A stretch of 64,000 bases of DNA from Planctomycetota bacterium (lineage in GTDB: Bacteria > Planctomycetota > Phycisphaerae > WQYP01): NCBI GenBank assembly GCA_021831565.1, contig JAKBMM010000002.1:39440-103439 (forward strand), given 5' to 3'. Shown here piece by piece: positions 5,693 through 57,946 of this stretch. Every line of letters begins with the position of its first letter. Position 1 is the stretch's first letter. The notes below the pieces were generated by a model. The model worked only from the letters and a program-made list of their open reading frames with translations, searched no databases and was not told the DNA's origin. A program made the translations under genes and the position numbers.

Positions 5693-5974
5693 CTATTTGT
5701 GTCCCACAGGTCCACCGGCGGTAAGGTATTTCCGCTCCACCGCCTGCGCCAAGTCAATATCGTGGATATTCGCCAGCGTGCAGAGCCAGGCCAGAACATC
5801 GGCGAATTCCTCCTCCTGGTTTTTCCGATTTTTGCCCTGCAGCGCCGTGGCCAGCTCGCCGACTTCCTCCACAAACCACATGAACGTGGCGGCGGTTCCG
5901 CGCTCGCAATCGCGTTGCGAATATTTGTTCCGGATATGCCCCTGGAATCCGGCGATACTCAGAGAATCCACCAT
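5693..5974 (-). CDS. MazG-like nucleotide pyrophosphohydrolase (small single-domain)
   Basis: MVDSLSIAGFQ...FVEEVGELATAL...EEEFADVLAWLCTLANIHDIDL matches the MazG EExxE / ADVL helix motifs. Start taken at internal ATG 5974 of ORF 5693..6061. Confidence 0.65.
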   Translation of the reverse strand: MVDSLSIAGFQGHIRNKYSQRDCERGTAATFMWFVEEVGELATALQGKNRKNQEEEFADVLAWLCTLANIHDIDLAQAVERKYLTAGGPVGHK

Positions 5975-6057
5975 GAGAACCCTTTCATTTCCGCGCCTTG
6001 ATTCACCGGCGCTGCGGGCTGGGAGCAACGAACGCCGCCGCTCGCGCCGCCGCGCCT

Positions 6058-6798
6058 TCACCCCTCGCGGGCACGGAGGATGACTTGTTTCATCCGGGCC
6101 ACCGCTTCGCGCAAGCCGATGAATACAGCCTGGCTGACAATGGCGTGGCCGATATGCAACTCGCCAACGTGCGGCAGCGCCGCGATTGCCCCGACATTGC
6201 GTTCATCCAGCCCGTGGCCGGCGTTGAATTGCATGCCGGAGTTCAAAATATATTCACCCGCGGCGCGCACTTTTTCCAGTTGAACCCGCCGGGCGGCCGG
6301 GGTGGCGGCATTGGCGTAAGGGCCGGTGTGGACTTCACAGATCTCCAGGCCCGCCTTTTTCGCGGCGGCGACCTGGCGCGGCTGGGCATCAATGAAAGCG
6401 CTAACCAGAATGCCGGCGTCGCGCAGGCGGTGAACCACGCGGCGAACGGCCTGGAACCGCCCTGCCACATCCAAGCCGCCTTCGGTGGTAACTTCGGTCC
6501 TCTTTTCCGGCACCAGGGTGGCCATGGCCGGCCGCAGGCGAAGCGCTATGGCGAGCATCTCCTGCACCGCCGCCATCTCCAGGTTCAAGGGAACGCGTAC
6601 GCTTTGAACCAGCAGTTGCACATCCCGGTCCTGAATATGCCGGCGATCTTCGCGCAGGTGAACGGTGATCAGATCGGCCCCGCCGAGCTGCGCTTCCACC
6701 GCGGCCCAGAGAGGGTCCGGTTCCCGGGCGCGCCGGACTTGACGCAGCGTCGCGACGTGGTCGATATTGACGCCGAGTTTCACCATATTTATACCCAT
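6058..6798 (-). CDS. pdxJ: Pyridoxine 5'-phosphate synthase
   Basis: MVKLGVNIDHVATLRQVRR...ITVHLREDRRHIQDRD...NLEMA...EVHTGPYA is the canonical PdxJ sequence. Start at 6798 or 6786. Confidence 0.85.
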   Translation of the reverse strand: MGINMVKLGVNIDHVATLRQVRRAREPDPLWAAVEAQLGGADLITVHLREDRRHIQDRDVQLLVQSVRVPLNLEMAAVQEMLAIALRLRPAMATLVPEKRTEVTTEGGLDVAGRFQAVRRVVHRLRDAGILVSAFIDAQPRQVAAAKKAGLEICEVHTGPYANAATPAARRVQLEKVRAAGEYILNSGMQFNAGHGLDERNVGAIAALPHVGELHIGHAIVSQAVFIGLREAVARMKQVILRAREG

Positions 6799-9641: not shown

Positions 9642-9722
9642 ATGCCCAAACCCCGTCGCCGCCGTAAGATCGGCAGTAAGAAACGTCACGCCAAGTGGAA
9701 AGCCCGCCATCACCAACAATAA
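9642..9722 (+). CDS. 26-aa extremely basic peptide MPKPRRRRKIGSKKRHAKWKARHHQQ, possible bTHX-like small ribosomal protein
   Basis: GGAG RBS at 9631..9634 ending 7 nt upstream of the ATG; TAA stop at 9720..9722. Below the ORF-track size cut-off. The RRxRR-KI segment resembles ribosomal protein THX. Confidence 0.4.
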   Translation: MPKPRRRRKIGSKKRHAKWKARHHQQ

Positions 9723-9726
9723 GAAC

Positions 9727-9742
9727 CTATCTATTGAGATAG
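9727..9742 (+). terminator. Short hairpin CTATCT-ATTG-AGATAG immediately after the small peptide gene (carries the shared motif TCTATTGAGATAGT)
   Basis: Perfect 6-bp stem with 4-nt loop, followed by TTTC AAAAA. AT-rich stem, so a weak terminator or a protein-binding site. Confidence 0.3.
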
Positions 9743-9824
9743 TTTCAAAAACCCGCTTGTTCCACCCGCGGACCGCGGATCTCGGGATAACGCCGGCACC
9801 CGCGCCGCGGGCCGCCGCAGAAGG

Positions 9825-13742: not shown

Positions 13743-14276
13743 GTGAGCGGCATCATGATGGACATTCCAACGCTGGCCAGGCGAATAAAAGAAATTGCTT
13801 ATCTGGAGGGCGATTTCACGTTGCGATCGGGAAAAAAATCCCCTTACTATCTGGACAAATATCTTTTTGAAACGCAGCCGGACATCCTGGCGGCGCTGGG
13901 CGCTCATCTGGCCGGGCGGCGCTCGGGGGCGACGGTCCGCATCGGTGGCGCCGAGCTGGGCGGCGTGGCGTTGGCGGCCGCCGCCAGCCTGGCCAGCGGT
14001 CTGCCTTTCTTTATCGTGCGCAACGCCCGGAAAGGCCACGGCACGAACAGGGTCATCGAAGGGACTATGGCGGCGGGAGATGCGGTGCTGCTGGTGGAGG
14101 ACATCGCCACCACCGGCGGGGCGGTGCTGGCGGCGGCGAAGATCATTACCGCCGCCGGCGGGCGGGTGGAGAAGGTTGTGGCGGTGATCGACCGGCAGGA
14201 AGGGGCCAGGGAAAATATCGAAAAAGAGGGGTTTATATTTGAATCGATTTTGACCCGTCAGGACCTGGGTATTTAG
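13743..14276 (+). CDS. pyrE: Orotate phosphoribosyltransferase
   Basis: The PRPP-binding motif VLLVEDIATTGGAV is present and the length is typical. GTG at 13743 or ATG at 13755/13758. Confidence 0.85.
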   Translation: MSGIMMDIPTLARRIKEIAYLEGDFTLRSGKKSPYYLDKYLFETQPDILAALGAHLAGRRSGATVRIGGAELGGVALAAAASLASGLPFFIVRNARKGHGTNRVIEGTMAAGDAVLLVEDIATTGGAVLAAAKIITAAGGRVEKVVAVIDRQEGARENIEKEGFIFESILTRQDLGI

Positions 14277-14282
14277 AGCTTG

Positions 14283-14296
14283 TCTATTGAGATAGT
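14283..14296 (+). repeat. Second copy of the motif TCTATTGAGATAGT, 7 nt after the pyrE stop
   Basis: Identical 14-mer to 9730..9743, followed by a T-rich tract (TTAAGTTTTTTCG). Confidence 0.5.
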
Positions 14297-14333
14297 CTCT
14301 TAAGTTTTTTCGACCGTTCCGGCGCGAGACGTA

Positions 14334-15668
14334 ATGATGGATCAGAAAAACCACCGCCGGCATCGCGTCCGAAAATGGATCACGACGACGCTCAAGATTC
14401 TTATTGCGGTCGTGGGGTTATGGTACGTCATATCGCGCATTTCCTGGAGCGATCGCGTAATTATCCCCAGAGGAATGGTGATCCGGAACGTCACTTTTGT
14501 CCATCCCGCCGTGGTGGAACTTCTGGGCTGGCGGGGCAAACTGGCGCGGGTGCGGTTTAAGAACCAAACGATCACCGTGCGCCTGCCTTCCGGCCGGGTG
14601 GTTCGCGGCTTGGCGACTCGCGCTCCGCTTGATTTTCCGTCGGTGCTTCTGTTGCCGCGTAATTACCTGGCGCATTCCAGCGGCAAGCTGGAAATAAAAT
14701 TCGGTTTGGAGCACCTTCTCACCACGGCCAACCCGTGGCCGCTGGTTGCGGCGCTGCTGCTGCTGGGACTGCCCTTTCTGATTACGACATGGCGCTGGCG
14801 GAAACTCCTGGCGGTGCAGGGGCTGAACCTATCCTATGGAAAATGCCTGACGCTGACTTTCGTGGGGCAGTTCTACTCAACCTTTTTGCCCGGGACCACC
14901 AGCGGCGACGTGGTGAAAATCATCTACACGGGGCGGATCACCGGTCAGAAGACCAAAAGCGCTATTACCGTTCTGCTGGACCGTGTGATCGGGCTGGTGG
15001 GGTTGATGATCGTCGGCGGCTTGGCGGCGGGGGGGCAACTGCTCTTGGATCTGACGTATCGCCGCGCCGGAGTCGGACGGTCGGCGGATCCCCTGCTGCT
15101 GCATGTGCTGGGTCTTATTGCGCTCCTGCTGCTGGCGCTGGGGGCGGGGGCGATGGTCTATTTTTCCACCCGCCTGCGGCGGTGGCTGGGGATGGACGCC
15201 CTGCTCGCCCGGCTGCCGTTGCCGGAATTCATCAAACATGCCGACCGCACGCTGCGCGCTTACCGCGGTCATAAAGGCGTGCTGGCCGCGACGCTGCTGG
15301 CGAGCATGGTTTCCCAGGCCCTTCTGCCACTGGCCGGATGGCTGGCGGGACAGGCCTTCGGGATGCGCGCCCCCTTCGGATTTTACATGGCTTATATACC
15401 GGTGGCGGTGCTGGCGTCGAGTCTGCCGATTGTCCCGCCGCAGGGTCTCGGAGTGCTCGACGCGCTGATCTTGCACTTCTTCGTGATACGGGGCGTGGAC
15501 ACCGCCAGCCAGGCGTTCGCTCTGGCCCAGGCCATCCGTTTCATGCCGATTTTCTGGAACATGCTCGGAGCGTACTGGGTGGTCCACGATCACTACTCAC
15601 GACCCCATCTGGAAAGCCTCCAAGAATTGGCGCCGGAGAATGGCGCGGCCGCACCGGCGGGAATGTGA
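14334..15668 (+). CDS. Integral membrane protein, flippase-like / lysyl-phosphatidylglycerol-synthase TM-region family (UPF0104)
   Basis: About 8 TM helices; FVGQFYSTFLPGTTSGDVVKIIY matches the conserved UPF0104 loop. Confidence 0.5.
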   Translation: MMDQKNHRRHRVRKWITTTLKILIAVVGLWYVISRISWSDRVIIPRGMVIRNVTFVHPAVVELLGWRGKLARVRFKNQTITVRLPSGRVVRGLATRAPLDFPSVLLLPRNYLAHSSGKLEIKFGLEHLLTTANPWPLVAALLLLGLPFLITTWRWRKLLAVQGLNLSYGKCLTLTFVGQFYSTFLPGTTSGDVVKIIYTGRITGQKTKSAITVLLDRVIGLVGLMIVGGLAAGGQLLLDLTYRRAGVGRSADPLLLHVLGLIALLLLALGAGAMVYFSTRLRRWLGMDALLARLPLPEFIKHADRTLRAYRGHKGVLAATLLASMVSQALLPLAGWLAGQAFGMRAPFGFYMAYIPVAVLASSLPIVPPQGLGVLDALILHFFVIRGVDTASQAFALAQAIRFMPIFWNMLGAYWVVHDHYSRPHLESLQELAPENGAAAPAGM

Positions 15669-15684
15669 ACGAGATTATCGCAGT

Positions 15685-15800
15685 ATGGTTTACGGTTACG
15701 GAAGGACGGCCGTGGATTTCCATCCACGGCTGCGGGGGGGGCGACCATGGAGCAGCCGCGAGGATCGCAATCCCGCGGCCGTTTTGTGCGCCGCCGCGAG
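15685..15800. repeat. Copy A of a roughly 115-bp structured repeat element (three consecutive hairpins)
   Basis: About 95% identical to the reverse complement of 57431..57547. Contains hairpins CCGTGGAT-TTCC-ATCCACGG, CGGCTGC...GCAGCCG and CCGCGAGGAT / ATCCCGCGG. Confidence 0.65.
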
Positions 15801-15820
15801 CAATCATATTTGATATGTTG

Positions 15821-15850
15821 TTGGCAAAAATCGGCATCTAACACTAAAAT
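15821..15850 (+). promoter_or_regulatory. Putative promoter TTGGCA-N18-TAAAAT for hipBA
   Basis: TTGGCA at 15821..15826, TAAAAT at 15845..15850, about 30 nt upstream of the hipB ATG. Confidence 0.3.
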
Positions 15851-15879: not shown

Positions 15880-16194
15880 ATGGACGCGGCACCGGTCCAA
15901 CTGCACAGCCCTAACGAGATTGCCCGCCAACTGGCGCAGCACGTCCGCACCGAACGTCTCCGCCGCCAATGGAAACAGGAGACGCTGGCCAGGCGTTCGG
16001 GCGTGTCGGTGGCAACCATTCGCCGGTACGAACGTACCGGCCACACGTCGCTTGTGAACCTGCTGAAGCTCTGCCACGCGTTGGGCCGGCTGGATGAGTT
16101 CGCCGGCTTGCTCCAACCGCCACCCGCCACGTCGCTGGCCCAACTCGAATCCCGTGCCACCAAGGTCCGGGGGCGCAAACGAGGTGTGCGATGA
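15880..16194 (+). CDS. hipB: HipB-like HTH (XRE-family) antitoxin
   Basis: HTH segment ETLARRSGVSVATIRRYE. Stop overlaps the hipA start (ATGA). Confidence 0.7.
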   Translation: MDAAPVQLHSPNEIARQLAQHVRTERLRRQWKQETLARRSGVSVATIRRYERTGHTSLVNLLKLCHALGRLDEFAGLLQPPPATSLAQLESRATKVRGRKRGVR

Positions 16195-17441
16195 GGCAAC
16201 TGACGGTCAAACTGCAACGCCGGCCAGGCGACGCTCTGACGGTCGGCACGCTGGCAGAGCATGATCGACACACATACTTCGAGTACGACCCCACATTTCT
16301 CAACACCGGCTTTGAGCTCTCGCCCTTCAAGCTGCCCGCCCGGCCCGGCTTGATCGAACATACCGACCGCGCGTTCGGTCCGCTGCCCGGCGTGTTCGAC
16401 GACTCCCTGCCCGACGGTTGGGGTCTGCTATTGATGGATCGTCACTTCCGCCGCCAGGGTGTCGACCCCATGACGTTGTCCCCGCTCGATCGGCTCGCCC
16501 ACCTCGGCGCCCGCACCATGGGCGCTCTGGTCTACCATCCGCCGTCCCGCCAACTGCCCGAGCGCGACGAGCAACTGATCAATCTCTACGATCTTGGCCG
16601 CAATGCCGAGGATGTGCTCGAAGGCGACGCCGCCGAGGTGCTGCCCGAACTGATGCGGGCTGGCGGGTCGCCAGGCGGCGCCCGCCCCAAGGTACTCGTG
16701 GGCGTCCAGGGCGACCGCATCATCTCGGGCGCAGAGGATCTGCCCGAGAGATTCCTTGGTGGCGGGGGCGAGCATTGGATCGTCAAGTTCGCCGCCAAGG
16801 CGGACGCTCCCGCGGCCGGTCCCGTCGAATACGCGTATAGCCTGATGGCCCGGGCCGCCGGGGCGGACATGCCGCCGACTCGCCTATTCGAGGTCAGGCG
16901 CGGCCGCAGTGTCCGGCGGTACTTTGGCGTCAAACGGTTCGACCGCGCCGCTGAAAACCGGCGCGTTCACATGCACACCTTCGCCAACCTGGTGCACGTG
17001 AACTTCCGCATCCCCGCGACCGACTACGCTGATCTGTTGAAGGTGACGCGGGCGCTGACACGCAACCATGCCGACCTGCTGCGCCTGTTTCGGCTGATGC
17101 TGTTCAACATCGCCGCCCACAACCGCGACGATCACGCCAAGAACTTCGCCTTTACGCTCGACGATCAGACCGGCGAATGGTCGCTCGCCCCCGCCTACGA
17201 CCTGACTTACTCGCCCGGCCCCGGTGGCGAGCACACCACCACCATCCTCGGCGAGGGCCGCCAGCCAACACGCGGCCATTGCTTGAAGCTGGCCGATCAG
17301 TTCGGACTCAAACCCGGCGAAACTCGTCCCATCATCGACCAGGTCAACACCGCCATCAGCCACTGGCGCCGGTTCGCCGAGCAGGCGGGCTGCGCGAAGA
17401 AGATGGTTGTCGCGATCGGCAAGGCAATCGCCGCAATCTAA
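16191..17441 (+). CDS. hipA: HipA-family serine/threonine kinase toxin
   Basis: HipA N- and C-terminal domains. GGARPK ATP-binding motif (SPGGARPKVLV) and catalytic HNRDDHAKNFAF loop. Confidence 0.85.
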   Translation: MRQLTVKLQRRPGDALTVGTLAEHDRHTYFEYDPTFLNTGFELSPFKLPARPGLIEHTDRAFGPLPGVFDDSLPDGWGLLLMDRHFRRQGVDPMTLSPLDRLAHLGARTMGALVYHPPSRQLPERDEQLINLYDLGRNAEDVLEGDAAEVLPELMRAGGSPGGARPKVLVGVQGDRIISGAEDLPERFLGGGGEHWIVKFAAKADAPAAGPVEYAYSLMARAAGADMPPTRLFEVRRGRSVRRYFGVKRFDRAAENRRVHMHTFANLVHVNFRIPATDYADLLKVTRALTRNHADLLRLFRLMLFNIAAHNRDDHAKNFAFTLDDQTGEWSLAPAYDLTYSPGPGGEHTTTILGEGRQPTRGHCLKLADQFGLKPGETRPIIDQVNTAISHWRRFAEQAGCAKKMVVAIGKAIAAI

Positions 17442-17528: not shown

Positions 17529-17720
17529 TCACATGCCGGCGTTCATAGGTGTCCAGGATACTGTGGTACACGTGGTATCTGGGATTTTAAACGCGTAGGA
17601 ATATCTTTCGACTTGCTTGGACTGTTCGGCAGCGTAAATTGTTCGCGATACAGAGAGGCTGTGGTCGTGCTCGGCTACAGCGGCCAACCCCGTCTCCAAT
17701 TTCTGAAGATCAGCGTCCAT
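17529..17720 (-). CDS. Small hypothetical protein (63 aa) with strong RBS, downstream of the 329-aa islet gene
   Basis: AGGAGA RBS 6 nt upstream of ATG. Low GC like the islet; co-directional with the 329-aa gene, 77 nt after its stop. Confidence 0.45.
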   Translation of the reverse strand: MDADLQKLETGLAAVAEHDHSLSVSRTIYAAEQSKQVERYSYAFKIPDTTCTTVSWTPMNAGM

Positions 17721-17797: not shown

Positions 17798-18787
17798 CTA
17801 CCACTTCGCCTCACGGAGTTTGGAAGCAATTTCCTTGACGTTCGATGGGTCGATATTGGTTTTGGGGATTACCTCCCGCAGGTCGTGGAAAAGGGGACCC
17901 TGGATTGCATAAGGCGAGTCCTTTCTGTACTCCGTTTGCTCGGGGACTCCACAGAAGAAGCGATGGCCAGTTGAGACCTCCCATCCAAGGTCTTTCTTGG
18001 CCGCGTTTATTATGCCGATTATTTTGCTGTCGTATTCGGTTGTTTCGCGCCCGTCGACCAGCGTCTTGGTGAGGCGATCATTGACATATTCCGCGTCATA
18101 AATTGAGTCAACTGCCCAGATGCACGGCACATTTTTTTGTGCATATATTCCTAGAAATTTGTGTTTTCTATAGCCGCGATCTTGCGCATGGAAATAGACG
18201 CCGAATTGCTGGTTAATTTTTACCGTTTCGCTGCACGGAACGATTCGGAGGAGGAATTTCGATTCATCGAACAGCCCCGTGTCACTGCAATAGTCTATAT
18301 AATCTTCCACTAACGCAAGCATCTGCGGCTCGTGTTCCTTGAACATCGACTTAATTTCGTGGCAAATATCCTCGTAGGTGATGTTGCGAAAAACGAGGCT
18401 GGGAACTTGTTTTGCGATTTTGCCCCCCTCTATGGCGGATAACTGTTGTCGTTGTCGGGTTAGCAGGAGAAGTATTTTCTGGGACTCATTTGAAAAGCTA
18501 GTTGCATGCCGGGAGAGTTGGTCTAGGTTGACACCACTGTTGACCTTCGATTCCACAAGAATCTTGAAGCTCCGTTGGATTATGGCGCCATCAGGCACCG
18601 ATTGTTTGTTGCGCGGCTGCTGGTTGACTTCGATTCCCACAACTATTTCCTCCCCGCAAAGCTTGGTTAGCAGATTCGACAGGTGCTGCGGGGAATAATC
18701 GTATATGCGAGCGAGGAGTTGGAGCGTGTTATTTGTGACAGTATTCTCTTGGCCTGAATATCGCGGAAAATAATGGATTTTAGACAC
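17798..18787 (-). CDS. Hypothetical protein (329 aa) in a low-GC islet, with an N-terminal PD-(D/E)xK-like motif (VPDGAII...ILVESKV)
   Basis: Long ATG-initiated ORF with codon usage clearly different from its surroundings. No family recognised beyond the nuclease-like PD...ESK spacing. Confidence 0.6.
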   Translation of the reverse strand: MSKIHYFPRYSGQENTVTNNTLQLLARIYDYSPQHLSNLLTKLCGEEIVVGIEVNQQPRNKQSVPDGAIIQRSFKILVESKVNSGVNLDQLSRHATSFSNESQKILLLLTRQRQQLSAIEGGKIAKQVPSLVFRNITYEDICHEIKSMFKEHEPQMLALVEDYIDYCSDTGLFDESKFLLRIVPCSETVKINQQFGVYFHAQDRGYRKHKFLGIYAQKNVPCIWAVDSIYDAEYVNDRLTKTLVDGRETTEYDSKIIGIINAAKKDLGWEVSTGHRFFCGVPEQTEYRKDSPYAIQGPLFHDLREVIPKTNIDPSNVKEIASKLREAKW

Positions 18788-19280: not shown

Positions 19281-19368
19281 CGGAGAGAGTGGGATTCGAA
19301 CCCACGGTGGGGTCATCCCCCACACACGACTTCCAATCGTGCTCCTTAAGCCGCTCGGACATCTCTCC
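19281..19368 (-). tRNA. tRNA-Ser (anticodon GGA)
   Basis: Minus-strand sequence GGAGAGATGTCCGAGCGG...GTGGGTTCGAATCCCACTCTCTCCG. Perfect 7-bp acceptor stem, T-arm GTGGG-TTCGAAT-CCCAC, long variable arm, anticodon loop TTGGAAG. No encoded CCA. Confidence 0.9.
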
Positions 19369-19398: not shown

Positions 19399-20262
19399 CT
19401 ACCGTTCGTCCGAAGGTACGTCAATTTTCTCCCGATTTACCCCGGCGGCGGGCGACCGGGAAGGATCGGGATTCCGCCGGCCGTCGATCCGGCCGATCAG
19501 CCGCAACAGACCGTCGAGGATGGTCAGGGGATGCGGCGGGCAGCCGGGAACGAAAAGATCAACGGGCACAATGGAATCGGCGCCATGGTGGACCTGGGGA
19601 TGATCGCGGTACGGTCCGCCGGAAATGGCGCACGCGCCGATGGCGATGACTATTTTCGGTCCGGGCACGGCATCATAGGTTTGTACAAGGGCGGATTTCA
19701 TGTTCCGGGTAACCGGGCCGGTGATCAACAGACCGTCGGCATGGCGGGGCGAGGCGACAAAATCAATTCCGAAACGTCCCAGATCCCAGCCAATGGTGGT
19801 AAGCACATTGACATCGGCCTCGCAGGCATTGCAGCCGCCGGCCGAGACCACGCGCAATTTCAGCGAGCGGCCCAGGAGTTTGCGGAGTTTATCGTCCAGG
19901 GCCGCGGCGAGCGCCGGCTCGCCGTCGGGGCCTACCAGCAAGTCCGCGCGCCGCCGAACCGCCAGGCGATAATCACGCGAATATTGAATCGCGCCCGTCG
20001 GGCAGGCTTCGGCGCAATCGACGCAGAACAGGCAGCGGCCCAGATCCAGTTCGATGCGGCCGGCGGCGATGGTGATGGCCCGCGTGGGACAGGCCTGGGC
20101 GCACAGGTCGCATGAATCGGGGCACCGGGCGGCATCGAATACGGGCCGGGCACGGAAATGCGGCGCCAGCGCCGGCGGAGCGCCGTCGGGATAGGCCATG
20201 GTCTGATGGCCCTGTTGGAATCGGGCTTTGACAATATCGAACATAAAACGTTCCTTCACCAA
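19399..20262 (-). CDS. Fused 2x[4Fe-4S] ferredoxin (NuoI/HycF-like) + NuoB/HycG-like small subunit of a complex-I / group-4-hydrogenase-like module
   Basis: N-terminal CPDSCDLCAQACP and CLFCVDCAEACP. NuoB-like part has GGCNACE (hydrogenase-type CxxC), IGACAISGGPY and PGCPP proximal-cluster ligands. Confidence 0.8.
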   Translation of the reverse strand: MVKERFMFDIVKARFQQGHQTMAYPDGAPPALAPHFRARPVFDAARCPDSCDLCAQACPTRAITIAAGRIELDLGRCLFCVDCAEACPTGAIQYSRDYRLAVRRRADLLVGPDGEPALAAALDDKLRKLLGRSLKLRVVSAGGCNACEADVNVLTTIGWDLGRFGIDFVASPRHADGLLITGPVTRNMKSALVQTYDAVPGPKIVIAIGACAISGGPYRDHPQVHHGADSIVPVDLFVPGCPPHPLTILDGLLRLIGRIDGRRNPDPSRSPAAGVNREKIDVPSDER

Positions 20263-20268
20263 TCCGAA

Positions 20269-21786
20269 TTATAGATCGTGACCGCAGTAAGAAAGACTAA
20301 AACTCTTATTGCAGAGCGGGAAATCGGAAATTTGCCCGCCGCGCATCGCCAGGGCCAGCCCCATCCAGTTATGGAACGACGGATCAACCACTTTATAACG
20401 CTCGAAGCGGCCGGCGGCGTCGGTCAACGCCAGATGGCATATTTCGCCGCGCCACCCTTCCACCAATGCTACGGCCAGATGATCGGGCGCCAAATTTCCC
20501 ACCGGGGAGCTTATGGTTCCGGGCGGGAGGGATCGAAGCTGTGTCCGGACAAAGTCCAGGGATCGCTGAATTTCCAACCAGCGGACATAAGCGCGGGCGA
20601 AGACATCGCCGCCGTCCCAGGAAGAAACGGGGATATGTATAAACCGGAATAAGCCGGAGGGATGGTCCTGCCGGGCGTCGCGGGTAAGTCCGCAGGCGCG
20701 GGCCACCGGTCCGACCATGCCCAGTTCAACGACCGCGCGGCGCGTCACCGGGCCGATGCCCTCGAAGCGGGCCATCACCGAGGACGAATTCCAGAGCAAT
20801 TCGACGGCCTGGCGGGTCTGCCGGCCGCAAATATCCAGTTTCGCCAGCAGATCGTTCACGGTACAAGTGGCCGGATCAAAACGCACGCCACCCGGTCGAA
20901 TCAGTCCGCGTCCGAACCGGCTGCCGCAAAGAGCGGCCGTCATGTTCAGGAATTCACCGCGCAGGCGTCCGCAATAAGAGGCGGTGGGAAGAAAGCCCAC
21001 GTCGCCGCTGAGCGCCCCCAGGTCTCCCACGTGATTGGCCAACCTTTCCAGTTCCAGGGCGATGCCGCGAATGCTCTGCGCCCGCGGCGACTTCTGTTTG
21101 CGGGCCAACGCTTCGAGCACCTGGCAGTAAGCGGTGGCGTGTCCGATGGTGGTGTCGCCGGCGAGCGTTTCGGCGTAATGGATGGTGCGATGATTCGGAC
21201 CGCCGAGCAGTGCTTGCTCCACTCCTCGATGCTGGTATCCCAGCGCCATCTCCAGGTGAAACACAACTTCTCCGTGGCACTGGAAGCGGAAATGTCCCGG
21301 CTCAATGACGCCCGCGTGGACCGGTCCCACGGCCACCTCGTGCACTTCCTCCCCCCGCACCTGGTAGAAATCCATCACTCCCGGCGGCGCGACGCGATCG
21401 TTCCCGGGCCGGCCCGATGGAAACAATGGCGGATGAAAACGGAGCGGTTTGAGCCAGGGATGTCCGACGATATCCAAACCACACTGTTCGGCGATTTCCC
21501 GTTCAAAGAGATGTACCTGCGGACACCGGGGCGTTAAAGAAGGGTAGTGCCGGCCCGCCAGCGTGGAAGCGACCCGGAGAATGGATTGGGTATCGTCCGC
21601 CAGAACCACATACAGGCGCAGGCGATCCGGTGCTTCGAGCGAACCAAACAGGCTTGCCACCCGCCGGCCCGTGCGTACCGCATCCAGAATGACTTGCTGG
21701 AAGTTGTCCAGGGCCAGGTCGGGAATCAAACGACGGCTGATGGCGCGTCCGGCGCCGAGCAGGGGTAAAGAGTCGGCCTGATTCAT
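20269..21786 (-). CDS. Fused NuoC-like + NuoD/[NiFe]-large-subunit-like protein lacking all Ni-Fe-ligating cysteines (Ehr-type)
   Basis: NuoC motif FEREIAEQCGLDIVGHP; NuoD-like GPVHAGVIEPGHFRF...HRGVEQ. No CxxC anywhere; the C-terminus has DPSFHNW where hydrogenases have DPCxxC. Confidence 0.8.
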   Translation of the reverse strand: MNQADSLPLLGAGRAISRRLIPDLALDNFQQVILDAVRTGRRVASLFGSLEAPDRLRLYVVLADDTQSILRVASTLAGRHYPSLTPRCPQVHLFEREIAEQCGLDIVGHPWLKPLRFHPPLFPSGRPGNDRVAPPGVMDFYQVRGEEVHEVAVGPVHAGVIEPGHFRFQCHGEVVFHLEMALGYQHRGVEQALLGGPNHRTIHYAETLAGDTTIGHATAYCQVLEALARKQKSPRAQSIRGIALELERLANHVGDLGALSGDVGFLPTASYCGRLRGEFLNMTAALCGSRFGRGLIRPGGVRFDPATCTVNDLLAKLDICGRQTRQAVELLWNSSSVMARFEGIGPVTRRAVVELGMVGPVARACGLTRDARQDHPSGLFRFIHIPVSSWDGGDVFARAYVRWLEIQRSLDFVRTQLRSLPPGTISSPVGNLAPDHLAVALVEGWRGEICHLALTDAAGRFERYKVVDPSFHNWMGLALAMRGGQISDFPLCNKSFSLSYCGHDL

Positions 21787-23216
21787 GGCTTGGCTCCCAG
21801 ATATCGGCTGGCCTGGTGCAAAAGGTCCCGCAGCGGCGGCGGCAGATACAGCCCCAGCAACAATACCATCAGCAGAGCACCCAGCGCCGGCAGACCACTC
21901 AGCAGGCCATCGCGGTAATTGTTCCGCGCGGCGGCTACGGGCGCCCGGCCCAGCACGGCGGCGAGCACGGTTCGCCCCATTCCCAGGAAAATCACCAGCA
22001 GCAGAAACAGAAACGCCGCGCCGATCAGGAAATGCCCGGCGGCAAAGGCGCCGTTAAGAATCATGAACTCACTGATAAACGGGCCGAACGGAGGCGATCC
22101 GGTGATGGCCAGAAAACCCAGCATAAACACCGTGCCCGAGAGAGGCAGCCGTCGCATGGCGCCGTGCACCTGCGGTATGGTTTTGCCGCCGTAGGCCCGG
22201 TCGATGTTGCCGACGGAAAGAAACAGCGATCCCTTGGTCAGGCCGTTGTTGATCACGTGCAGCATGGCGCCCAGCAGAGCGATACCGCCGATTCCCAGTC
22301 CCAGCGCAAGAATTCCCATGTGTTCCACACTGGAATAGGCGAGCATCCGCTTGAGGTCCTTCTGGCCGATCATAAATATCGCCGCGAAAAGCATGGATAA
22401 AAGCCCCAGAAATATCAGGAGCCTGGAGGCATAAGCGCCATCGCCGGCGGCATACAGGATGTGCTCGGATCGCACCACCATAAGAAAAGCGCTGCTGATG
22501 AGCGCTCCGGAAAACATGGCCGAAACCGGAGCCGGGCTTTCGCCATGGGCGTCCGGCAGCCAGGAGTGCATCGGGGCCAGGCCCATTTTGGTTCCATAGC
22601 CGACCAGCAGCAGGACAAATCCGGCCTGAAGCCAGACCTTGTTGAGCCGGGGCGCCTGGCGAAGCAGGTCGATGATTTTCAGGGAAGGCGTCATTCCCCG
22701 GCTCACGGCGGAGTAAGCCACGAAAAATGATCCGAGCAAGGCCAGAGCGATGCCCACGGAGCAGATCAGGAGATATTTCCAGGTGGCTTCGATGGACTGC
22801 GGCGTGCGGTTGAAATATATCAAAGGCGCGGAGCTAAGGGTGGTGGCTTCCATGGCCACCCACATCAGGCCGAGGTTGTCCGTGCAGATGACCAGGGTCA
22901 TGGCGCCCAGAAACAGCAGGAAGCACGAGCAGAAGACGCGATTGGCATGATCGGCGCGGGAGCACAGGTATCCCGCCAAATAAAAAGAACACAGCAGGAA
23001 CAACACGCTCACCAGAAGCAGCACCACGCGCCCGGGCGGATCGATCTCCAGCCAGCCCCCGCGCGCGCCGCCGCCATATCCGGCCAGAATGGCCAGGACC
23101 AGGCCCAGGTGGGCGATCGCCACGGGCGGCAGGAGCCAGGGCCGCCGGCGGTTGGAGGGCAGCAGCGCCGCCAGGGCGGCGGCGAGAGGACATAGAATAA
23201 TAAGTGCAATGTACAT
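21783..23216 (-). CDS. NuoN/NuoM/MrpD-like antiporter-type membrane subunit (HyfF-like)
   Basis: 477 aa, 14 TM. Conserved WLPDAHGESPAPVSA and LAYSSVEHMG motifs. Start overlaps the previous gene by 4 nt. Confidence 0.8.
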   Translation of the reverse strand: MYIALIILCPLAAALAALLPSNRRRPWLLPPVAIAHLGLVLAILAGYGGGARGGWLEIDPPGRVVLLLVSVLFLLCSFYLAGYLCSRADHANRVFCSCFLLFLGAMTLVICTDNLGLMWVAMEATTLSSAPLIYFNRTPQSIEATWKYLLICSVGIALALLGSFFVAYSAVSRGMTPSLKIIDLLRQAPRLNKVWLQAGFVLLLVGYGTKMGLAPMHSWLPDAHGESPAPVSAMFSGALISSAFLMVVRSEHILYAAGDGAYASRLLIFLGLLSMLFAAIFMIGQKDLKRMLAYSSVEHMGILALGLGIGGIALLGAMLHVINNGLTKGSLFLSVGNIDRAYGGKTIPQVHGAMRRLPLSGTVFMLGFLAITGSPPFGPFISEFMILNGAFAAGHFLIGAAFLFLLLVIFLGMGRTVLAAVLGRAPVAAARNNYRDGLLSGLPALGALLMVLLLGLYLPPPLRDLLHQASRYLGAKP

Positions 23217-23223
23217 ACGTTAA

Positions 23224-23865
23224 TTATCCCTTCAAGGAAGAAAGCCGCCGGGTGTCCAGCGAAGCGAACTCGCGATTGATGTGATGCATGATGATGCTGA
23301 TGACAAAAATGCCGACAAACAGGTCCAGCAGTACGCCCAGCTCCACCAGGGACGGGATCGCGCCGAGCAGAAGCAGACCGAAAACGAAAATGCCGTTTTC
23401 CAGCAGCAGAAAACCGATGGTTTGCGTAAGGGCCTTCACCCGCGTGGTCAAAAGCAGAAAGCCGGTGAAAAGCATGGAGATGGAAGTGGGAATCACCAAC
23501 AGACCCAGAGGGCTTGCGGAAGGCGTGATCCGTCCGGCCAGCACCAGGGCGGCGCCGGTGGCGGCGGCGCCCAGAAGAATGCAGGGCATGAATCCGATGA
23601 TCGGTTCCACCTCCCGTTTGACGTGGGCGTCGCGCAGGGCCTTGAGCAGCATATTGGGAATCACGACGCCTTTGAGCACAACCGTCATCAAGGCCATGAA
23701 CAGCGGTACGAATTGCGCCTCCCGGAGCACCAGGGGAGGCAGCAATCCCAGCAAGATGCCCTGGAGCGCCGCGGCGTGTATCAAAGCCTTCATGCGGCCG
23801 GCGCCCAGGACAAACAGGTTGATCAGAATCACCAGTACAAAAATGGCGTTGAGGGTCATCATCAT
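23224..23865 (-). CDS. HyfE-like small membrane subunit of the complex
   Basis: 213 aa, about 6 TM; size and hydropathy are those of hydrogenase-4 component E. 7-nt gap to the neighbouring genes. Confidence 0.6.
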   Translation of the reverse strand: MMMTLNAIFVLVILINLFVLGAGRMKALIHAAALQGILLGLLPPLVLREAQFVPLFMALMTVVLKGVVIPNMLLKALRDAHVKREVEPIIGFMPCILLGAAATGAALVLAGRITPSASPLGLLVIPTSISMLFTGFLLLTTRVKALTQTIGFLLLENGIFVFGLLLLGAIPSLVELGVLLDLFVGIFVISIIMHHINREFASLDTRRLSSLKG

Positions 23866-23871
23866 GGTCGG

Positions 23872-24810
23872 TCACCGCAGCAGCAAAAGAAATCCAAAAC
23901 CGTTCAAAAGACAGGCGGCAACCAGAAGCGTCGGCACCAGTCGAAGCTGCAGCCGGGCCATGATGGATTCCACCACGCCAATCACACCCGCCACCGCCAG
24001 CAGGCCGGGTATGGTCATCGCCCAGTTTTCCCAGATCCATCCCTGATTCAGCGGGAGCAGCACATGGAGCAGCAGGGCGCCGAGGACCAGAAGTTTGACG
24101 GCTGATCCGTAAATCTGCGCCGCCAGCAGGGGGCCGCTGTTGTCCAGCACCAGCACCTCATGTATCATTGTCAATTCGAGATGTGTATTTGGATCATCAA
24201 TGGGCAGACGGGAGGTCTCCGCCAGGAGCACCACGAACAATCCGAACGCCGTGAGCACCAGCGCCGCCGCGGCCGTGGAATCAATAGCGACATGTGTCGC
24301 GGGCGCCAGCATGGTGCTCAGGCTCAAGGTTCCGGAGAGTTTCACCAGCACCAGCAGCGCCAGAAACAACGCCGGTTCCGAAAAGGAGGCGAAGGTGAGT
24401 TCCCGGGCGGCCCCCATCCCCTCAAACGATGAGCCGGTATCCAGCGCCGCCAGAATGGTGAAAAATCTCCCCAGCGCCAGCAGGTAAGCAAACAGGATCA
24501 GATCGCCGGTGAAATGCACGGGAGCCGCGGTCGGTCCCAGCGGAACAAGCAACCCCGCCAGCAAGACGCTGGCCAGGGAAATCAGCGGCGCGGCCGAAAA
24601 CACCCAGGTTGTGGTGGAACTCAGCACGACGCCTTTGCGCATGAGCCGAAGCAGATCGTAGTAAGTCTGGAAAAGCGGCGGGCCGACGCGCCCGGCGAAC
24701 CAGGCCTTGGTTTTGTTGATAACGCCCGGCAGCAATGGCGGCAGAAGCACCAGCAGCAGGATCTGAAAAGCAATCGAAATAAGCGTATTCATAAAGTCAA
24801 TAGCTCGCAA
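23872..24810 (-). CDS. NuoH/HycD/HyfC-like membrane subunit
   Basis: 312 aa with 8 TM. Conserved IDDPNTHLELTMIHEVLVLDNSGP-type loop (the E/D-rich quinone-channel loop region). Confidence 0.75.
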   Translation of the reverse strand: MRAIDFMNTLISIAFQILLLVLLPPLLPGVINKTKAWFAGRVGPPLFQTYYDLLRLMRKGVVLSSTTTWVFSAAPLISLASVLLAGLLVPLGPTAAPVHFTGDLILFAYLLALGRFFTILAALDTGSSFEGMGAARELTFASFSEPALFLALLVLVKLSGTLSLSTMLAPATHVAIDSTAAAALVLTAFGLFVVLLAETSRLPIDDPNTHLELTMIHEVLVLDNSGPLLAAQIYGSAVKLLVLGALLLHVLLPLNQGWIWENWAMTIPGLLAVAGVIGVVESIMARLQLRLVPTLLVAACLLNGFGFLLLLR

Positions 24811-24828
24811 ATATCGTGCGACCGCCCC

Positions 24829-26796
24829 TCAAACCAGCAACAGCACCAGAACAATCAGCAAGACGTAAAGCAGATACAACTGCACCGTACCGCTCTGAAA
24901 AATCCTGGCGGATTTAAGGGTATTCCCGGCCTTGTGCAACGCCGGTTGCACAACGCTCTCCAGCAGCGGGTCCGGGGTATGAGAGGCATAGTTCGATGGT
25001 TGGGGAAAAACGCCCTGAATCCGCGGTTGTCGCCGGGTGGACCACACAAGCCAGCGCAGCATTTCTGTGAGCGCTTGCGTGAGCGATGAGCCGGTGTACT
25101 GCATGCGCTGGTTGGGAGAGACGTAACCACAACCCCATGTCCGGCCGGGGTTACGGATCCGGGCGTGCCGCCAGGGTATGGCCAGCACCCCGATCAGTCC
25201 GCCCGCGAAGAACAGGGCCAGGGCCACAGCGGTAAAACAGCCCAGGGGAATAATGGTTTCCAGGGGGATGGGCGCGTTCCAAGGCGTCCAGGCTCGAATC
25301 GCATGATCCAGAAGTCCTGTGAACAACTGCGGAAAAATGCCGACGATCGCACAGCCGGCGGCCAGCAGCAGCATGGGCGCCAGCATCATGGACCCCGGCT
25401 CATGGGCGTTGGCGGCCGCCGCGGTTCGCGGTTGGCCGGCGAATGATGTCGCCGTGAACTTGATAAACGTCGTCATGGCCAAAGCCCCGACCATGGCCAA
25501 CAGGGGAACGGCCAGTGCGGCCCAGCCGGCGGGTGTTCCCCCCTGGAGCGTTTTGAATAATCCCAGGTAAATGAACAGTTCGCTGACAAAGCCATTCCAT
25601 GGCGGCAGAGCCGAGATGGAGGCCGCTCCAACCAGCATCAGCCAGAAAAGCGTCGGCATTCGTCGGGCCAGGCCGCCCAAAGCCTCCAGATCGCGGGCGC
25701 CCGTGCCGTGTATGATTCCGCCGGCGCCCATGAACAGGAGCGGTTTGAACAGGCTATGATTGAACATGTGAAGCAGCGATCCCCCCAGTCCCAGCGCCAC
25801 CCAAAGCGGGTGTTGCAGGGATAGTCCCAACACGGCCAGCCCCAGACCCGTCATGAGAATGCCGATATTTTCAATGCTGCTGTAGGCCAGAAGCCGCTTG
25901 CAGTCCCTCTGCGCACAGGCCCATACAATTCCCAGGAAAGCCGAGAGCATTCCACAACTGAGCAGCACCGCTCCCCACCAGATCGGTGGATGACCCGCGA
26001 TGGCGGCCACCCGCACGATGCCGTAAACGCCCATGTTCAGCAGCACACCGGAAAACAGCGCCGATACGTGGCTAGGGGCATTGGCGTGCGCCCCCGGCAG
26101 CCAGACATGCAGCGGGACCAGACCGGCCTTGCAGCCAAATCCCACCAGCCCCAGAATAAACAGAGCCGCCAGCATCGCTCTCGGCAGGTGCGTCAGGCCG
26201 GTCGGCCAGAGATTTAGCGAACCGGACCCGACTCGGAGCAATACGAAAAAGGCGATCAGACAGAGTGTGGCAATATGGGTGGCGATGAGGTAGACCCATC
26301 CCGCCTGTTGCACTTGCGGCCGACGGTCCTCGGTTATCAGAAGAAAGTAGCCCGCCATCGCCATGATTTCCCAGGCGATGAGGAATTCCACGCTGTTGGC
26401 GGCGAGAACCACCAGGATCATTCCGGCGGTCGTGATTCCCCAGAATAAACGGAGTTTGCGTCCATCCGCGGGATGCCGCCGCTGCGGCCAATAGCCCAGG
26501 CCATAGACGGACCCCAGGGCGGAAATCAGAAAAATGGGAAGTAAAAACCAGGCGCTTAAGTCATCCAGTTGCAAGGCGGGCTTGCCGATCGGAAAGCGGT
26601 ATGTCGTGGCCCAATGCAACGGAGCGGCCGCCGCTAGATCATGGCGCAACAGTACCGCGATGCCGAGGGCGCTGGCCAGCACATGGATGGCCATCGATAG
26701 TACCGGCCCGCGCGCGCTGCGCCGGCCGGACACCAGCGAAGGCAAGCCGCTTCCAGCGATCAATAGAGCGGCGAGAATCAGAAGAAACATGGTCAT
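24829..26796 (-). CDS. NuoL/MrpA/HyfB-like antiporter-type subunit, paralog 1
   Basis: Start taken at MTMFLLI (ATG 26796; GGAG RBS 9 nt upstream). Conserved HVWLPGAHANAPSHVSALFSG and KRLLAYSSIENIG motifs. Confidence 0.8.
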   Translation of the reverse strand: MTMFLLILAALLIAGSGLPSLVSGRRSARGPVLSMAIHVLASALGIAVLLRHDLAAAAPLHWATTYRFPIGKPALQLDDLSAWFLLPIFLISALGSVYGLGYWPQRRHPADGRKLRLFWGITTAGMILVVLAANSVEFLIAWEIMAMAGYFLLITEDRRPQVQQAGWVYLIATHIATLCLIAFFVLLRVGSGSLNLWPTGLTHLPRAMLAALFILGLVGFGCKAGLVPLHVWLPGAHANAPSHVSALFSGVLLNMGVYGIVRVAAIAGHPPIWWGAVLLSCGMLSAFLGIVWACAQRDCKRLLAYSSIENIGILMTGLGLAVLGLSLQHPLWVALGLGGSLLHMFNHSLFKPLLFMGAGGIIHGTGARDLEALGGLARRMPTLFWLMLVGAASISALPPWNGFVSELFIYLGLFKTLQGGTPAGWAALAVPLLAMVGALAMTTFIKFTATSFAGQPRTAAAANAHEPGSMMLAPMLLLAAGCAIVGIFPQLFTGLLDHAIRAWTPWNAPIPLETIIPLGCFTAVALALFFAGGLIGVLAIPWRHARIRNPGRTWGCGYVSPNQRMQYTGSSLTQALTEMLRWLVWSTRRQPRIQGVFPQPSNYASHTPDPLLESVVQPALHKAGNTLKSARIFQSGTVQLYLLYVLLIVLVLLLV

Positions 26797-26840
26797 CAAC
26801 AACGACTCCAGACGACTCCATCCCGGCACGCCGGGATCGG

Positions 26841-28823: not shown

Positions 28824-29548
28824 TCGCCTTGCCCCGGTGAGTTGCCATGGGCCGCCGCAGGACCTTGCCCTGTCGTCAAAATACCGGACTCCGCCCGTCG
28901 CAGGGATTCCAGAACCTCTTCCCGGGCGGCCTGCTCCAGCACGACCTTCTTGAATCCCGGATCACGCAGGACAAAACCCAGCCGCGAAAGCAATTGCAGA
29001 TGCGCCCGCACAGTGGGACTGATAAGCGTAAAGAGAGTACTTACCGGCTGCCCGTCGAGTGCCCCAAAGTCCACGGGCTTTTCCAGGAAACACAGCACGA
29101 TCATGGGACCGGACAGGTGCAACACGATGGGATTGCGGACATGCGGAATCGCGATTCCTTCTCCAATGCCGGTCGAGCCGAGAGCTTCCCGGGCCAGCAA
29201 CACCTGATAGAGAAATTCGCGGTCCACTTCCTCCGGCAGCCGCATGATTTCCACCACGCTGCGCAGCACGGAACTTTTATCGACGCCGCTGATCCGGTAG
29301 TAGATGCCGCCATCGCGCAGCGCATCGGTTAGCGATGGCGCCGGCGTTTCACCTCCCTCCGGTTCAAGGAAGATTTCCGGGGAAACATGAATTTTTCGTG
29401 AGGTGGACCACTCAAGCAGCTCAGCCCGGTTGAATCGGTATTGCTCGTTAACCTGGTAGGCGGGAATGATCCCCTGCTTAATCCAGCGGTACACGCTTTT
29501 TTCCGATACATTAAGTAGTCGAGCGGCATCGCGGACGGTGAGTTTCAT
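28820..29548 (-). CDS. HTH (excisionase/MerR-like HTH_17) + PTS EIIA(Ntr/Fru type-2) two-domain protein, translationally coupled to the complex operon
   Basis: MKLTVRDAARLLNVSEKSVYRWIKQG HTH; EIIA-2 domain with phosphorylatable His in GEGIAIPHVRNP. Its stop overlaps the next start (ATGA). ATG 29548 with AAGGG RBS. Confidence 0.75.
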   Translation of the reverse strand: MKLTVRDAARLLNVSEKSVYRWIKQGIIPAYQVNEQYRFNRAELLEWSTSRKIHVSPEIFLEPEGGETPAPSLTDALRDGGIYYRISGVDKSSVLRSVVEIMRLPEEVDREFLYQVLLAREALGSTGIGEGIAIPHVRNPIVLHLSGPMIVLCFLEKPVDFGALDGQPVSTLFTLISPTVRAHLQLLSRLGFVLRDPGFKKVVLEQAAREEVLESLRRAESGILTTGQGPAAAHGNSPGQGE

Positions 29549-56897: not shown

Positions 56898-57416
56898 ATG
56901 GCTCTTGACCATCCCGCCGCGGCGCGGCTCAAAACACGGTTTCCCGGCCTGGCGCTGAAGGGCGCGTCCTTGAGCGGCCAGAGTCAGATATGGATTCCCC
57001 GCGAACACCTGGCGGAAATTGTTCTTTTTCTCCGCGATGATCCGACCCTGCGCTACGATATGCTCTGCGATATCAGTTGCGTGGACTATCTGAATTTTCC
57101 CGGCTGGGACAAACCACGTTTTGGGCTGGTTTATGTATTCAACAGTGTCGCCGGGGGCAATCCCCGGCTGATTCTGCGCGTGTTTCTCGCTGAAAACGAA
57201 TTGGAAGTCGATTCACTCACGCCGCTATTCGCCGGCGCCGAATGGCTCGAACGCGAAGTCTTCGACATGTTCGGCGTTCGTTTCACCGGCCATCCCGATC
57301 TGCGCCGCATCCTCACCTGGGATGGTTTTTCCGCGCACCCGCTGCGCAAGGATTACCCGGTAATCGGACGCGGCGAGCGCGAGAACTATCCCGTCATTTC
57401 CCGCGATTCCGCCTGA
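56898..57416 (+). CDS. nuoC: NADH-quinone oxidoreductase subunit C (30 kDa subunit), solitary
   Basis: EREVFDMFGVRFTGHPDLRRILT canonical NuoC motif. No other nuo genes adjacent. Confidence 0.8.
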   Translation: MALDHPAAARLKTRFPGLALKGASLSGQSQIWIPREHLAEIVLFLRDDPTLRYDMLCDISCVDYLNFPGWDKPRFGLVYVFNSVAGGNPRLILRVFLAENELEVDSLTPLFAGAEWLEREVFDMFGVRFTGHPDLRRILTWDGFSAHPLRKDYPVIGRGERENYPVISRDSA

Positions 57417-57430
57417 GCGCACCAGTGAGC

Positions 57431-57547
57431 TAACCGTTCACGGCGGCGCGGAAAACGGCCGCGGGATTGCGATCCTCGCGGCTGCCCCATGGTCGCCCCC
57501 CCGCAGCCGTGGATGGAAATCCACGGCCGTCCGTAACCGCAAACCAT
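57431..57547. repeat. Copy B of the structured repeat element (inverted relative to copy A)
   Basis: Reverse complement is about 95% identical to 15685..15800, including all three hairpins. Confidence 0.65.
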
Positions 57548-57615
57548 CATGCCTCGTAATCCAACCACCGCTCTATTACCATCCCCGACCGTGAAAAGCC
57601 GCCCGGAGGTGGACG

Positions 57616-57946
57616 CAAAACGGCTGCGGGATTCCACCTCGCGGCTGCATAACTGGCGCGGCTTGCGGTTCATCGCCTGAAGCTCGGCGAAGTAGGTCTT
57701 GCCGTCAGCGGCAGTTGTTGCAAAATCTGTAACAACTACCCCAGGAATCAGTTCCCCCTCCTCAAAGATATTCGCTATGTGCCGCGAAATCACGGACTTA
57801 TCGCGCCCGAACAGGTCCGTCATCTGGGTCAGGGACAGCCAGACGGTCTCGCCTTTTATGCGAACCTCAATCCGACTTCGCCCGTCAGAAGATTCGTAGA
57901 ATAGAAAATCAGACGGTATCTGCGTTGATTCGCATTTTAGATTCAC
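57616..57946 (-). pseudogene. N-terminal fragment of a RhuM-family (virulence-protein RhuM-like) gene, truncated at the repeat element
   Basis: SDGRSRIEVRIKGETVWLSLTQMTDLFGRDKSVISRHIANIFEEGEL...TTAADGKTY matches the RhuM N-terminal region only. The ORF then reads into repeat copy B; lower GC than neighbours. Confidence 0.5.

Follow-up and report, generated by a model that had tools for sequence, protein, structure and literature searches.

Relics of a ~320-bp MITE-like repeat with REP-like internal palindromes in a Planctomycetota genome

Bacterial MITEs, such as Correia of Neisseria, RUP of Streptococcus pneumoniae and Nezha of cyanobacteria, are multi-copy, non-coding elements of about 0.1-0.4 kb that are bounded by terminal inverted repeats and lie mostly between genes. 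They carry internal hairpins, occur in truncated and internally deleted variants, are associated with the disruption of genes and with rearrangements, and break short-read assemblies. Both Correia and RUP duplicate TA upon insertion. The REP, BIME and REPIN repeats of proteobacteria consist of ~30-nt imperfect palindromes that alternate in orientation and are separated by variable spacers. Located outside genes, they show no target-site duplications and serve as targets for other insertion sequences. The ERIC/IRU repeats of enterobacteria, which are 127-bp imperfect palindromes, are intergenic, highly conserved and spread over many genera, with size variants that arise by internal deletions and by insertions at fixed sites.

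Here we analysed a repeat in a 64-kb stretch of a Planctomycetota contig (the window). An earlier note on this DNA had described a family of structured repeats of roughly 115 bp, each with three consecutive GC-rich hairpins, and had proposed either a MITE/REP-like mobile element or a small structured RNA. Our analysis indicates that the repeats are probably relics of a ~320-bp non-coding, non-autonomous MITE-type repeat with REP-like palindromes inside inverted ends.

The full-length element and its three copies in the window

The window harbours two long copies, A and B, and a short copy, C (Table 1). A 37-mer of copy A that spans hairpin 1 and the adjoining G-run has one other exact match, at 57496-57532 on the minus strand, and a 33-mer spanning hairpin 2 and TTTT also has one, at 57452-57484 on the minus strand; neither recurred in 100 shuffles. 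In a pairwise alignment of 93 nt, A and B proved 95.7% identical, differing by a 4-nt indel and in the length of the G-run (8 versus 7 residues); this bears out the ~95% identity and the positions given earlier for the two long copies. The partial copy C is also real: its segment 45935-45969 matches the tail of copy B at 89%, and on the plus strand it reads GTAACCGTTCACGGCGGCGCGAAAAACGG... Searches by nhmmer and BLAST with a full-length reference revealed no window copy beyond A, B and C.

The window derives from contig DAHWML010000004.1 of MAG GCA_027343245.1, and the reference is an intact ~320-bp copy on another contig of the same MAG (L022), which was reached by six-frame translation of the repeat and a search for spurious ORFs crossing it (P0002). 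It consists of 319 bp, starting with GTAACCGTTCACG and ending with CGTGAACGGTTAC, which form a perfect 13-bp terminal inverted repeat. The same ends are perfect in L023 and have one mismatch in L050 and L027, and the intact copies measure 319-323 bp. The supposed 115-bp family unit is therefore only the right-hand third of a natural unit of ~320 bp, of which both long window copies are truncated forms, copy B running on to 57664-57669. The element has no coding capacity, as it is crossed only by spurious ORFs whose frames are shifted by the G-run and which belong to no Pfam or NCBIfam family. The peptide RPWISIHGCGG is indeed present in both ORFs for which it had been reported, 15338..15841 (+) and 57386..57946 (-).

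Each full-length element contains three related ~30-nt palindromic units (M1, M2 and M3) in + - + orientation, in addition to a variable G-run and, at its end, a weak hairpin. The units share the consensus GCAGCCG..GGA..AATCC..CGGCCGT, and the pattern CAGCCG-N6-14-AATCC-N0-3-CGGCYG has three matches per full copy but none outside the element in ~0.2 Mb. A compensated pair, T-A versus C-G, distinguishes M2 from M3 (GCCGTGGAT/ATCCACGGC versus GCCGCG.GGAT/ATCC.CGCGGC). Moreover, 10/13 residues of an internal site at element positions ~203-215, GGTTKRCGGTTAC, are identical to those of the right end, in the same orientation. Unit M1 is retained in copy B, where it had previously not been recognised as a part of the element.

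In copy A the left 200 nt are gone, the left inverted end among them, and at the right end the final ~8-11 nt are replaced. Copy B keeps an intact right inverted end, CGTGAACGGTTA, and lacks the left 81 nt together with the left inverted end. Since A is without both ends, B is without the left end and C is a stub, none of the three can be mobile; they are defective, immobile relics that persist as passive scars. Copy A starts 12 nt past the stop codon of an LPG_synthase_TM gene (15668) and is followed by hipB/hipA; the right end of copy B lies 15 nt past the stop of a nuoC-like gene (57416); and copy C is located between a fumarase/aspartase-family gene and hicB.

Table 1. Coordinates of the element copies, their internal units, the nuoC junctions and neighbouring features. 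Positions are those of the window unless a contig (L) or the element is named.
Feature	Location	Strand	Description
Copy A	15680-15801	+	element positions ~196/202-313, right-hand module only; BLAST 91% to L022:9981-10300; nhmmer E=9e-33
Copy B	57431-57669	-	element positions 82-320, 239 bp; BLAST 95% over 241 nt; nhmmer E=1e-82
Copy C	45934-45971	-	right-end stub, 29-37 nt, element positions ~281/293-321; profile of full-length element, E=2e-5
Unit M1	element ~98-128	+	internal direct repeat of unit M3
Unit M2 (hairpin 1)		-	perfect palindrome; pattern matched on minus strand
Unit M3 (hairpin 2)		+
M1 of copy B	57620..57648	-	GCAGCCGCGAGGTGGAATCCCGCAGCCGT
Hairpin 1 (M2) of copy A	15708..15731	+	GGCCGTGGAT-TTCC-ATCCACGGCT; fold, 10 bp
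Hairpin 2 (M3) of copy A	15755..15779	+	GCCGCGaGGAT-CGCA-ATCCCGCGGC; 10 bp, one bulge; then CGTTTT
Hairpin 1 (M2) of copy B	57505..57528	-
Hairpin 2 (M3) of copy B	57458..57482	-
Copy in L022	L022:9981-10300		intact, same MAG
Copy in L023			intact ends, interrupted by an unrelated MITE
Copies in L007			two copies flanking a 631-aa gene
Copy in L050/L051			intact, between an AMP-binding gene and a GH10 gene
Copy in L056			within a BPTD_3080-family restriction endonuclease ORF (E=9e-30); second junction lies beyond the contig end
Copy L030b	L030:12214-12352		internally deleted: positions 18-135 joined to 266-321
Copies in L027, L030			full-length left parts
nuoC junction, window	56898-57700		truncated copy B, then rhuM'/GH20
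nuoC junction, L030	L030:10519-10986		full-length copy, then radical SAM DUF3463 locus
nuoC junction, L027	L027:10519-11026		phosphomutase/homoserine dehydrogenase locus
nuoC-like gene	56898-57416		separate, stand-alone, beside copy B
rhuM-family N-terminal fragment	57683..57946	-	residues 1-85/88, 3' part absent
Fumarase/aspartase-family gene	44404-45858	-
hicB	46064-46243	+	PF15919, E=7e-11
hipB/hipA	15880-17441		HTH_3 / Couple_hipA + HipA_C; toxin-antitoxin pair, directly downstream of copy A
ORF past hipB/hipA	17529-17720	-	no Pfam family
ORF past hipB/hipA	17798-18787	-	no Pfam family
tRNA gene	19281-19368	-	past hipB/hipA
Hydrogenase-like cluster	19399-29590	-	between A and B; Complex1_49kDa/30kDa, Oxidored_q6, NADHdh, several Proton_antipo_M subunits
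Cobalamin riboswitch	1081-1312	-	RF00174, 107.6 bits
25-nt repeat, copy 1	9722-9746		the repeat contains a palindrome (AGARCYTRTCTATTGAGATAGTYTC)
25-nt repeat, copy 2	14275-14299		84% identical to copy 1; between a phosphoribosyltransferase gene and the LPG_synthase_TM gene

Several other features of the window are listed in Table 1. The stretch that holds the hipB/hipA pair and two ORFs is possibly a small island beside the tRNA gene. The gene cluster between copies A and B is of the Mrp/Hyf-like membrane-bound hydrogenase or formate hydrogenlyase type, and the nuoC-like gene stands apart from it. A 25-nt repeat occurs twice upstream of copy A and could represent a shared operator site.

Dispersal, variant forms and junctions

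Counted by flank, the element occupies at least nine distinct loci in the same population (A, B and C of the window; L022; the right flanks of L027 and L030; L030b; L050; and L056) and three in relatives (two in L007 and one in L023), as judged from about 0.15 Mb of lineage DNA. BLAST comparison showed that the copies are 91-97% identical. The whole 320 bp, with the same perfect ends, recurs as a block at no fewer than five loci. In all copies the similarity breaks off sharply at one shared right end, and many copies that have this end in common differ in their left boundary. The variant forms are modular, comprising positions 155-320, 202-313, or 18-135 joined to 266-321; the deletion in the last form runs between two direct internal units. 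Contigs L003 and L031 end inside the element, as expected of a multi-copy repeat. Altogether, the number of loci, the inverted ends, a copy inside an ORF, nested insertions and the contig breaks support the dispersed, multi-copy MITE/REP-type element that the earlier note had envisaged.

One of the nested insertions is found in L023, where an unrelated MITE of ~194 bp (L023:690-883) with 23-bp inverted ends (GGGGCCTGTGACAGTTTCTGCAA) sits in the left arm of the 320-bp copy. It is flanked by a 7-bp target duplication, ACCGGAT, of the host element's own sequence, and holds a stub, GTAACCGTTCACGGGCCAAAAACCG, that resembles fragment C of the window.

Comparison of the insertion sites revealed no difference at A or C between any of the assemblies retrieved, which for site C were 10 independent ones. 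For the L022 copy, the neighbouring PEP-CTERM gene has only a paralogue in L007, and no orthologous empty site was found there. Site B does differ between strains, by rearrangement and not as a clean empty site. At this site, the nuoC-like gene is joined through the repeat to three different downstream loci in the window, L027 and L030. The join in L030 is probably real, because this contig carries a specific 3-nt indel within 141 nt of the unique flank, and that in L027 could be an assembly chimera. The differing joins reflect either strain-level rearrangement at the repeat or chimeras assembled through it.

On the other side of copy B lies the rhuM-family fragment, which tblastn aligned over query residues 9-85/88 to genes annotated as RhuM family (lowest E=9e-21). 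The homology ends at 57683-57692, ~20 nt from the truncated left edge of copy B, in agreement with the earlier observation that this copy adjoins the truncation point of rhuM. Most simply, the 3' part of rhuM and the left 81 nt of copy B would have been lost together, in a single deletion or rearrangement at copy B. As for copy C, the adjacent hicB was confirmed, and it is an orphan as described: no hicA-like reading frame, nor a remnant of one, was detected on either side. As site C is identical in ten assemblies, a displacement of hicA by the stub has no support.

Ends, hairpins and the origin of the element

The check for target-site duplications that had been suggested gave a negative result. 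We compared the flanks of the three intact copies in L022, L023 and L050, allowing direct repeats of 2-10 bp and shifts of +/-4 nt, and found no duplication longer than 3 bp; the longest direct repeats abutting the ends are 2-3 bp, compared to 9 bp in a control MITE in L049. Nor did the 5' flank of any copy match the 3' flank of another, as the swapped halves left by inversions would; a 7/8 reverse-complement match between the 5' flank of L022 and the 3' flank of the second L007 copy was judged to be chance. A TA duplication might be hidden in the palindromic G-TA-ACC...GGT-TA-C ends, or duplications might have been scrambled by recombination between copies.

The control is an unrelated 124-bp MITE (L049:1633-1756, IMGVR_UViG_3300050026_000282) with a long internal hairpin, which shares the terminal 14 nt GTAACCGTTCACGG with our element and is flanked by a perfect 9-bp target-site duplication, GTCCAGGCA. 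Since the same 14-nt end bounds a MITE with a target-site duplication, the ends belong to a genuine transposable family. In another organism, therefore, these ends serve other non-autonomous elements. No autonomous parent with the ends of the element was found in ~0.48 Mb of DNA, and a scan of IMG/VR yielded only another MITE. Members of the IS66 family have ends starting with GTAA and generate 8-bp duplications; an IS66 origin is not supported, as no 8-bp duplication is present at the three intact copies. We also considered an attC site or integron, a group II intron domain V, a ribozyme and a prophage att site, and found no feature supporting any of them.

The only transposase seen near the copies is of the ISAzo13 family, whose members generate duplications of 0-4 bp and have ends starting with G. 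At two loci, L052-L055 and L056, this transposase gene starts directly after element position 215, and its first 58 residues match NCBIfam transpos_ISAzo13 (E=4.7e-10) and a Streptomyces ISAzo13 transposase (E=3.8e-9). This arrangement could mean that the 320-bp element is an internal-deletion derivative of the co-resident IS, with positions 1-215 as its left end and 216-320 as its right end. However, the IS start, GGCGTCGTTAATAAATAAAGG..., also abuts two unrelated flanks without any element sequence, and the IS end is unlike the 13-bp inverted repeat. As the IS start adjoins unrelated flanks and TTA precedes it at all three junctions, the IS possesses an end of its own and was inserted independently into the element; the two other flanks refute a derivation from the IS, which we hold to be hardly credible.

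The IS itself is multi-copy (L052:5880-6251, L053:1-140 and 5930-6195, L050:11780-12050, L027:17940-18221 and L056:2412-2441), with the left end GGCGTCGTTAATAAATAAAGGTAGCAAGTAGG and a transposase that starts with MRTFSQLQEKF(A/S)SVWTLLDERTRRLMAASEA... Of its three unrelated flanks, each ending in TTA, one is element position 215 in at least two copies. The contigs all break off after about 30-175 nt of the IS. A scan of IMG/VR for its start gave 0 matches, and a protein search with the 27-residue N-terminus of the transposase, padded with X, returned no candidates.

Folding of copy A predicted two strong hairpins and a weak terminal helix that closes the structure, with a minimum free energy of -60.2 kcal/mol. 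Thus, two of the three GC-rich hairpins described earlier are well formed, and the third is only weak and terminal. Copy A folds better than its shuffles on the plus strand (z=-2.7) and less markedly on the minus strand (z=-1.5), and the full element gave z=-4.9 and z=-4.0, respectively. Across 8 copies, none of the 20 pairs in hairpins 1 and 2 changes; in the whole structure of 24 pairs, 23 never vary, one varies on one side and none on both sides, the copies being very similar. By alignment column, 0/40 stem positions vary, versus 12/62 unpaired ones (Fisher p=0.003). This conservation fits constraint at the DNA or RNA level, and suggests that the hairpins either play a role in propagation or, as DNA or RNA structures, are tolerated. 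As the stems are invariant among the copies, covariation is uninformative here.

The hairpins might also be the functional part of small structured RNAs, or of RNA elements acting in cis, for instance terminators or stabilisers in 3'-UTRs. The better-than-shuffled plus-strand folds and the invariant stems between varying spacers are compatible with such a function, as are the CGTTTT directly after hairpin 2 and the position of copy A and the second L007 copy, which begin ~12 nt or less past the upstream stop codon; moreover, 6/8 copies are oriented like the upstream gene, although this bias is not significant. Nevertheless, Rfam 15 gave no match at the element, either at the gathering threshold on the window or at E<=10 on the full element; its only hits in the window were the cobalamin riboswitch and one tRNA, both outside the element. 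Covariation lends no support, 0/24 pairs varying on both sides among these very similar copies. Simple promoter and terminator scans detected no site inside A, B or a full-length copy, and hairpin 2 with CGTTTT, despite its terminator-like look, fails the terminator scan criteria. The minus strand also folds well, as with any palindromic DNA, and the truncated, internally deleted, interrupted and in-ORF copies fit mobile DNA rather than a gene. We therefore regard an RNA function as highly improbable and do not uphold the small structured RNA suggested earlier: a terminator or other RNA role of the hairpins is unproven, and we take the repeat to be an ordinary kind of junk or mobile DNA of bacteria rather than a new gene for an RNA.

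Alternatively, the origin might be that of a REP/BIME- or REPIN-like repeat: the ~30-nt palindrome would be the elementary unit and would spread through a REP-associated tyrosine transposase, or by another duplication-free mechanism, so that the 320 bp represents a mosaic cluster of three units and the 13-bp ends are incidental. Each copy has three related palindromic units in alternating orientation, M2 and M3 differ by a compensated pair, the variant forms are modular and the intact copies lack target-site duplications, all of which accord with this origin. Further support comes from the metagenome Ga0316217, in which hairpin 1 (GGGCCGTGGATTTCCATCCACGGCTC) occurs as a solitary unit of 23-32 nt on at least 8 contigs that are otherwise unrelated. 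Yet in the lineage studied here the units are never solitary and occur only within the 320-bp element (~0.2 Mb), the 320 bp recurs as one block, a MITE that makes target-site duplications elsewhere (L049) carries the same ends, and a RAYT gene was not seen in the loci examined. On balance, a REP-like origin appears unlikely. We consider quite unlikely a related scheme, in which a REP-derived hairpin module would have spread without target duplication through an enzyme recognising single strands or hairpins, with no classical DDE cut-and-paste, the hairpins also serving as a landing pad for the ISAzo13-family IS and possibly as 3'-end RNA structures. If true, the repeat would act as a hub, specific to this lineage, for rearrangements of the uncultured bacterium's genome. 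Finally, a simple segmental duplication within the region, without any mobility, could be read from the two long window copies, which are inverted and lack target-site duplications. It has next to no probability and was ruled out by copies that lie in unrelated gene contexts, both in other assemblies and on further contigs of the same MAG, the similarity stopping sharply at the same right end everywhere.

The solitary hairpin-1 units of Ga0316217 (L004-L006, L008-L010, L012 and L013) often lie near contig ends, and some adjoin other short repeats (GAGATCGGGG; GACGCACG..AAGCGTGAA.TACGAACT). These contigs show no homology to the present organism by blastn or tblastx, and their hairpins look like a REP-type family of a different organism. 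In a public collection of genomes from 185,579 species, the hairpin-2 pattern gave 0 matches. The hairpin-1 20-mer gave five single matches, none with the element: two are in apparent coding sequence and three at one orthologous intergenic site in Planctomycetota MAGs. In the Planctomycetota/Phycisphaerales MAGs (L017:1223, L020:1493 and L021:866-885), the 20-mer is followed by tandem CTAATGCC repeats; it is the only hint, and a weak one, that the phylum makes use of this palindrome. Blastn with the full element against PLSDB plasmids and GenBank phages gave no match, and a literature search for the end sequences and the hairpin found no mention of them.

We thus favour the MITE-type repeat as the source of the window copies. 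Its size, lack of coding capacity, inverted ends and multiple copies are those of a MITE; since neither a target-site duplication nor a parent was found, it is MITE-like, short of a proven MITE. We propose that intact copies are, or formerly were, moved in trans by a transposase recognising the inverted ends. The copies would then decay: they would be truncated, lose the stretch between the direct units M1 and M3, receive insertions of other elements and recombine with one another. The shared right end with differing left boundaries is a pattern not expected from simple cut-and-paste.

The repeat accounts for MAG contigs that break or join differently (L003, L031, L027 and L030), for spurious 'hypothetical proteins' annotated across the element (P0001-P0003, P0026 and P0027), and for the truncated rhuM and the strain-level rearrangement beside nuoC. 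It adds a MITE-like family of an uncultured lineage that had not been recorded before, knowledge of which is useful for annotation and assembly of this lineage. Two of its traits are less common, namely the mosaic of REP-like palindromes inside inverted ends and the lack of a detectable target-site duplication. The element alone opens no new mechanistic question.

Comparison with known repeat families

Compared to Correia, RUP and Nezha, the 320-bp element is alike in size, in its non-coding nature and terminal inverted repeats, and in its multiple, mostly intergenic copies with internal hairpins and with truncated and internally deleted variants. It also resembles these MITEs in its association with gene disruption, rearrangement and broken short-read assemblies. 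By contrast, it shows no target-site duplication at three intact copies where Correia and RUP duplicate TA, its parent IS was not found here, and its interior is composed of three REP-like units rather than a simple fold-back.

The interior resembles the REP, BIME and REPIN repeats in its ~30-nt imperfect palindromes of alternating orientation with variable spacers. The extragenic position, the absence of target-site duplications and the use as a target by other insertion sequences are further shared traits, and the solitary hairpin-1 unit dispersed in another organism is REP-like too. However, the three units travel here as a fixed block with perfect 13-bp inverted ends, and neither a RAYT gene nor solitary units were seen in the loci examined of this lineage. 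The likeness is one of architecture, and we claim no sequence similarity.

The element is also similar to ERIC/IRU in its intergenic location, its high conservation and its size variants, which are due to internal deletions and insertions at fixed sites; in both families the mode of spread is unclear. They are unrelated in sequence, and ERIC is a single long imperfect palindrome. Moreover, ERIC spans many genera, whereas the hairpin-2 pattern of the 320-bp family has no match in the 185,579 species genomes searched.
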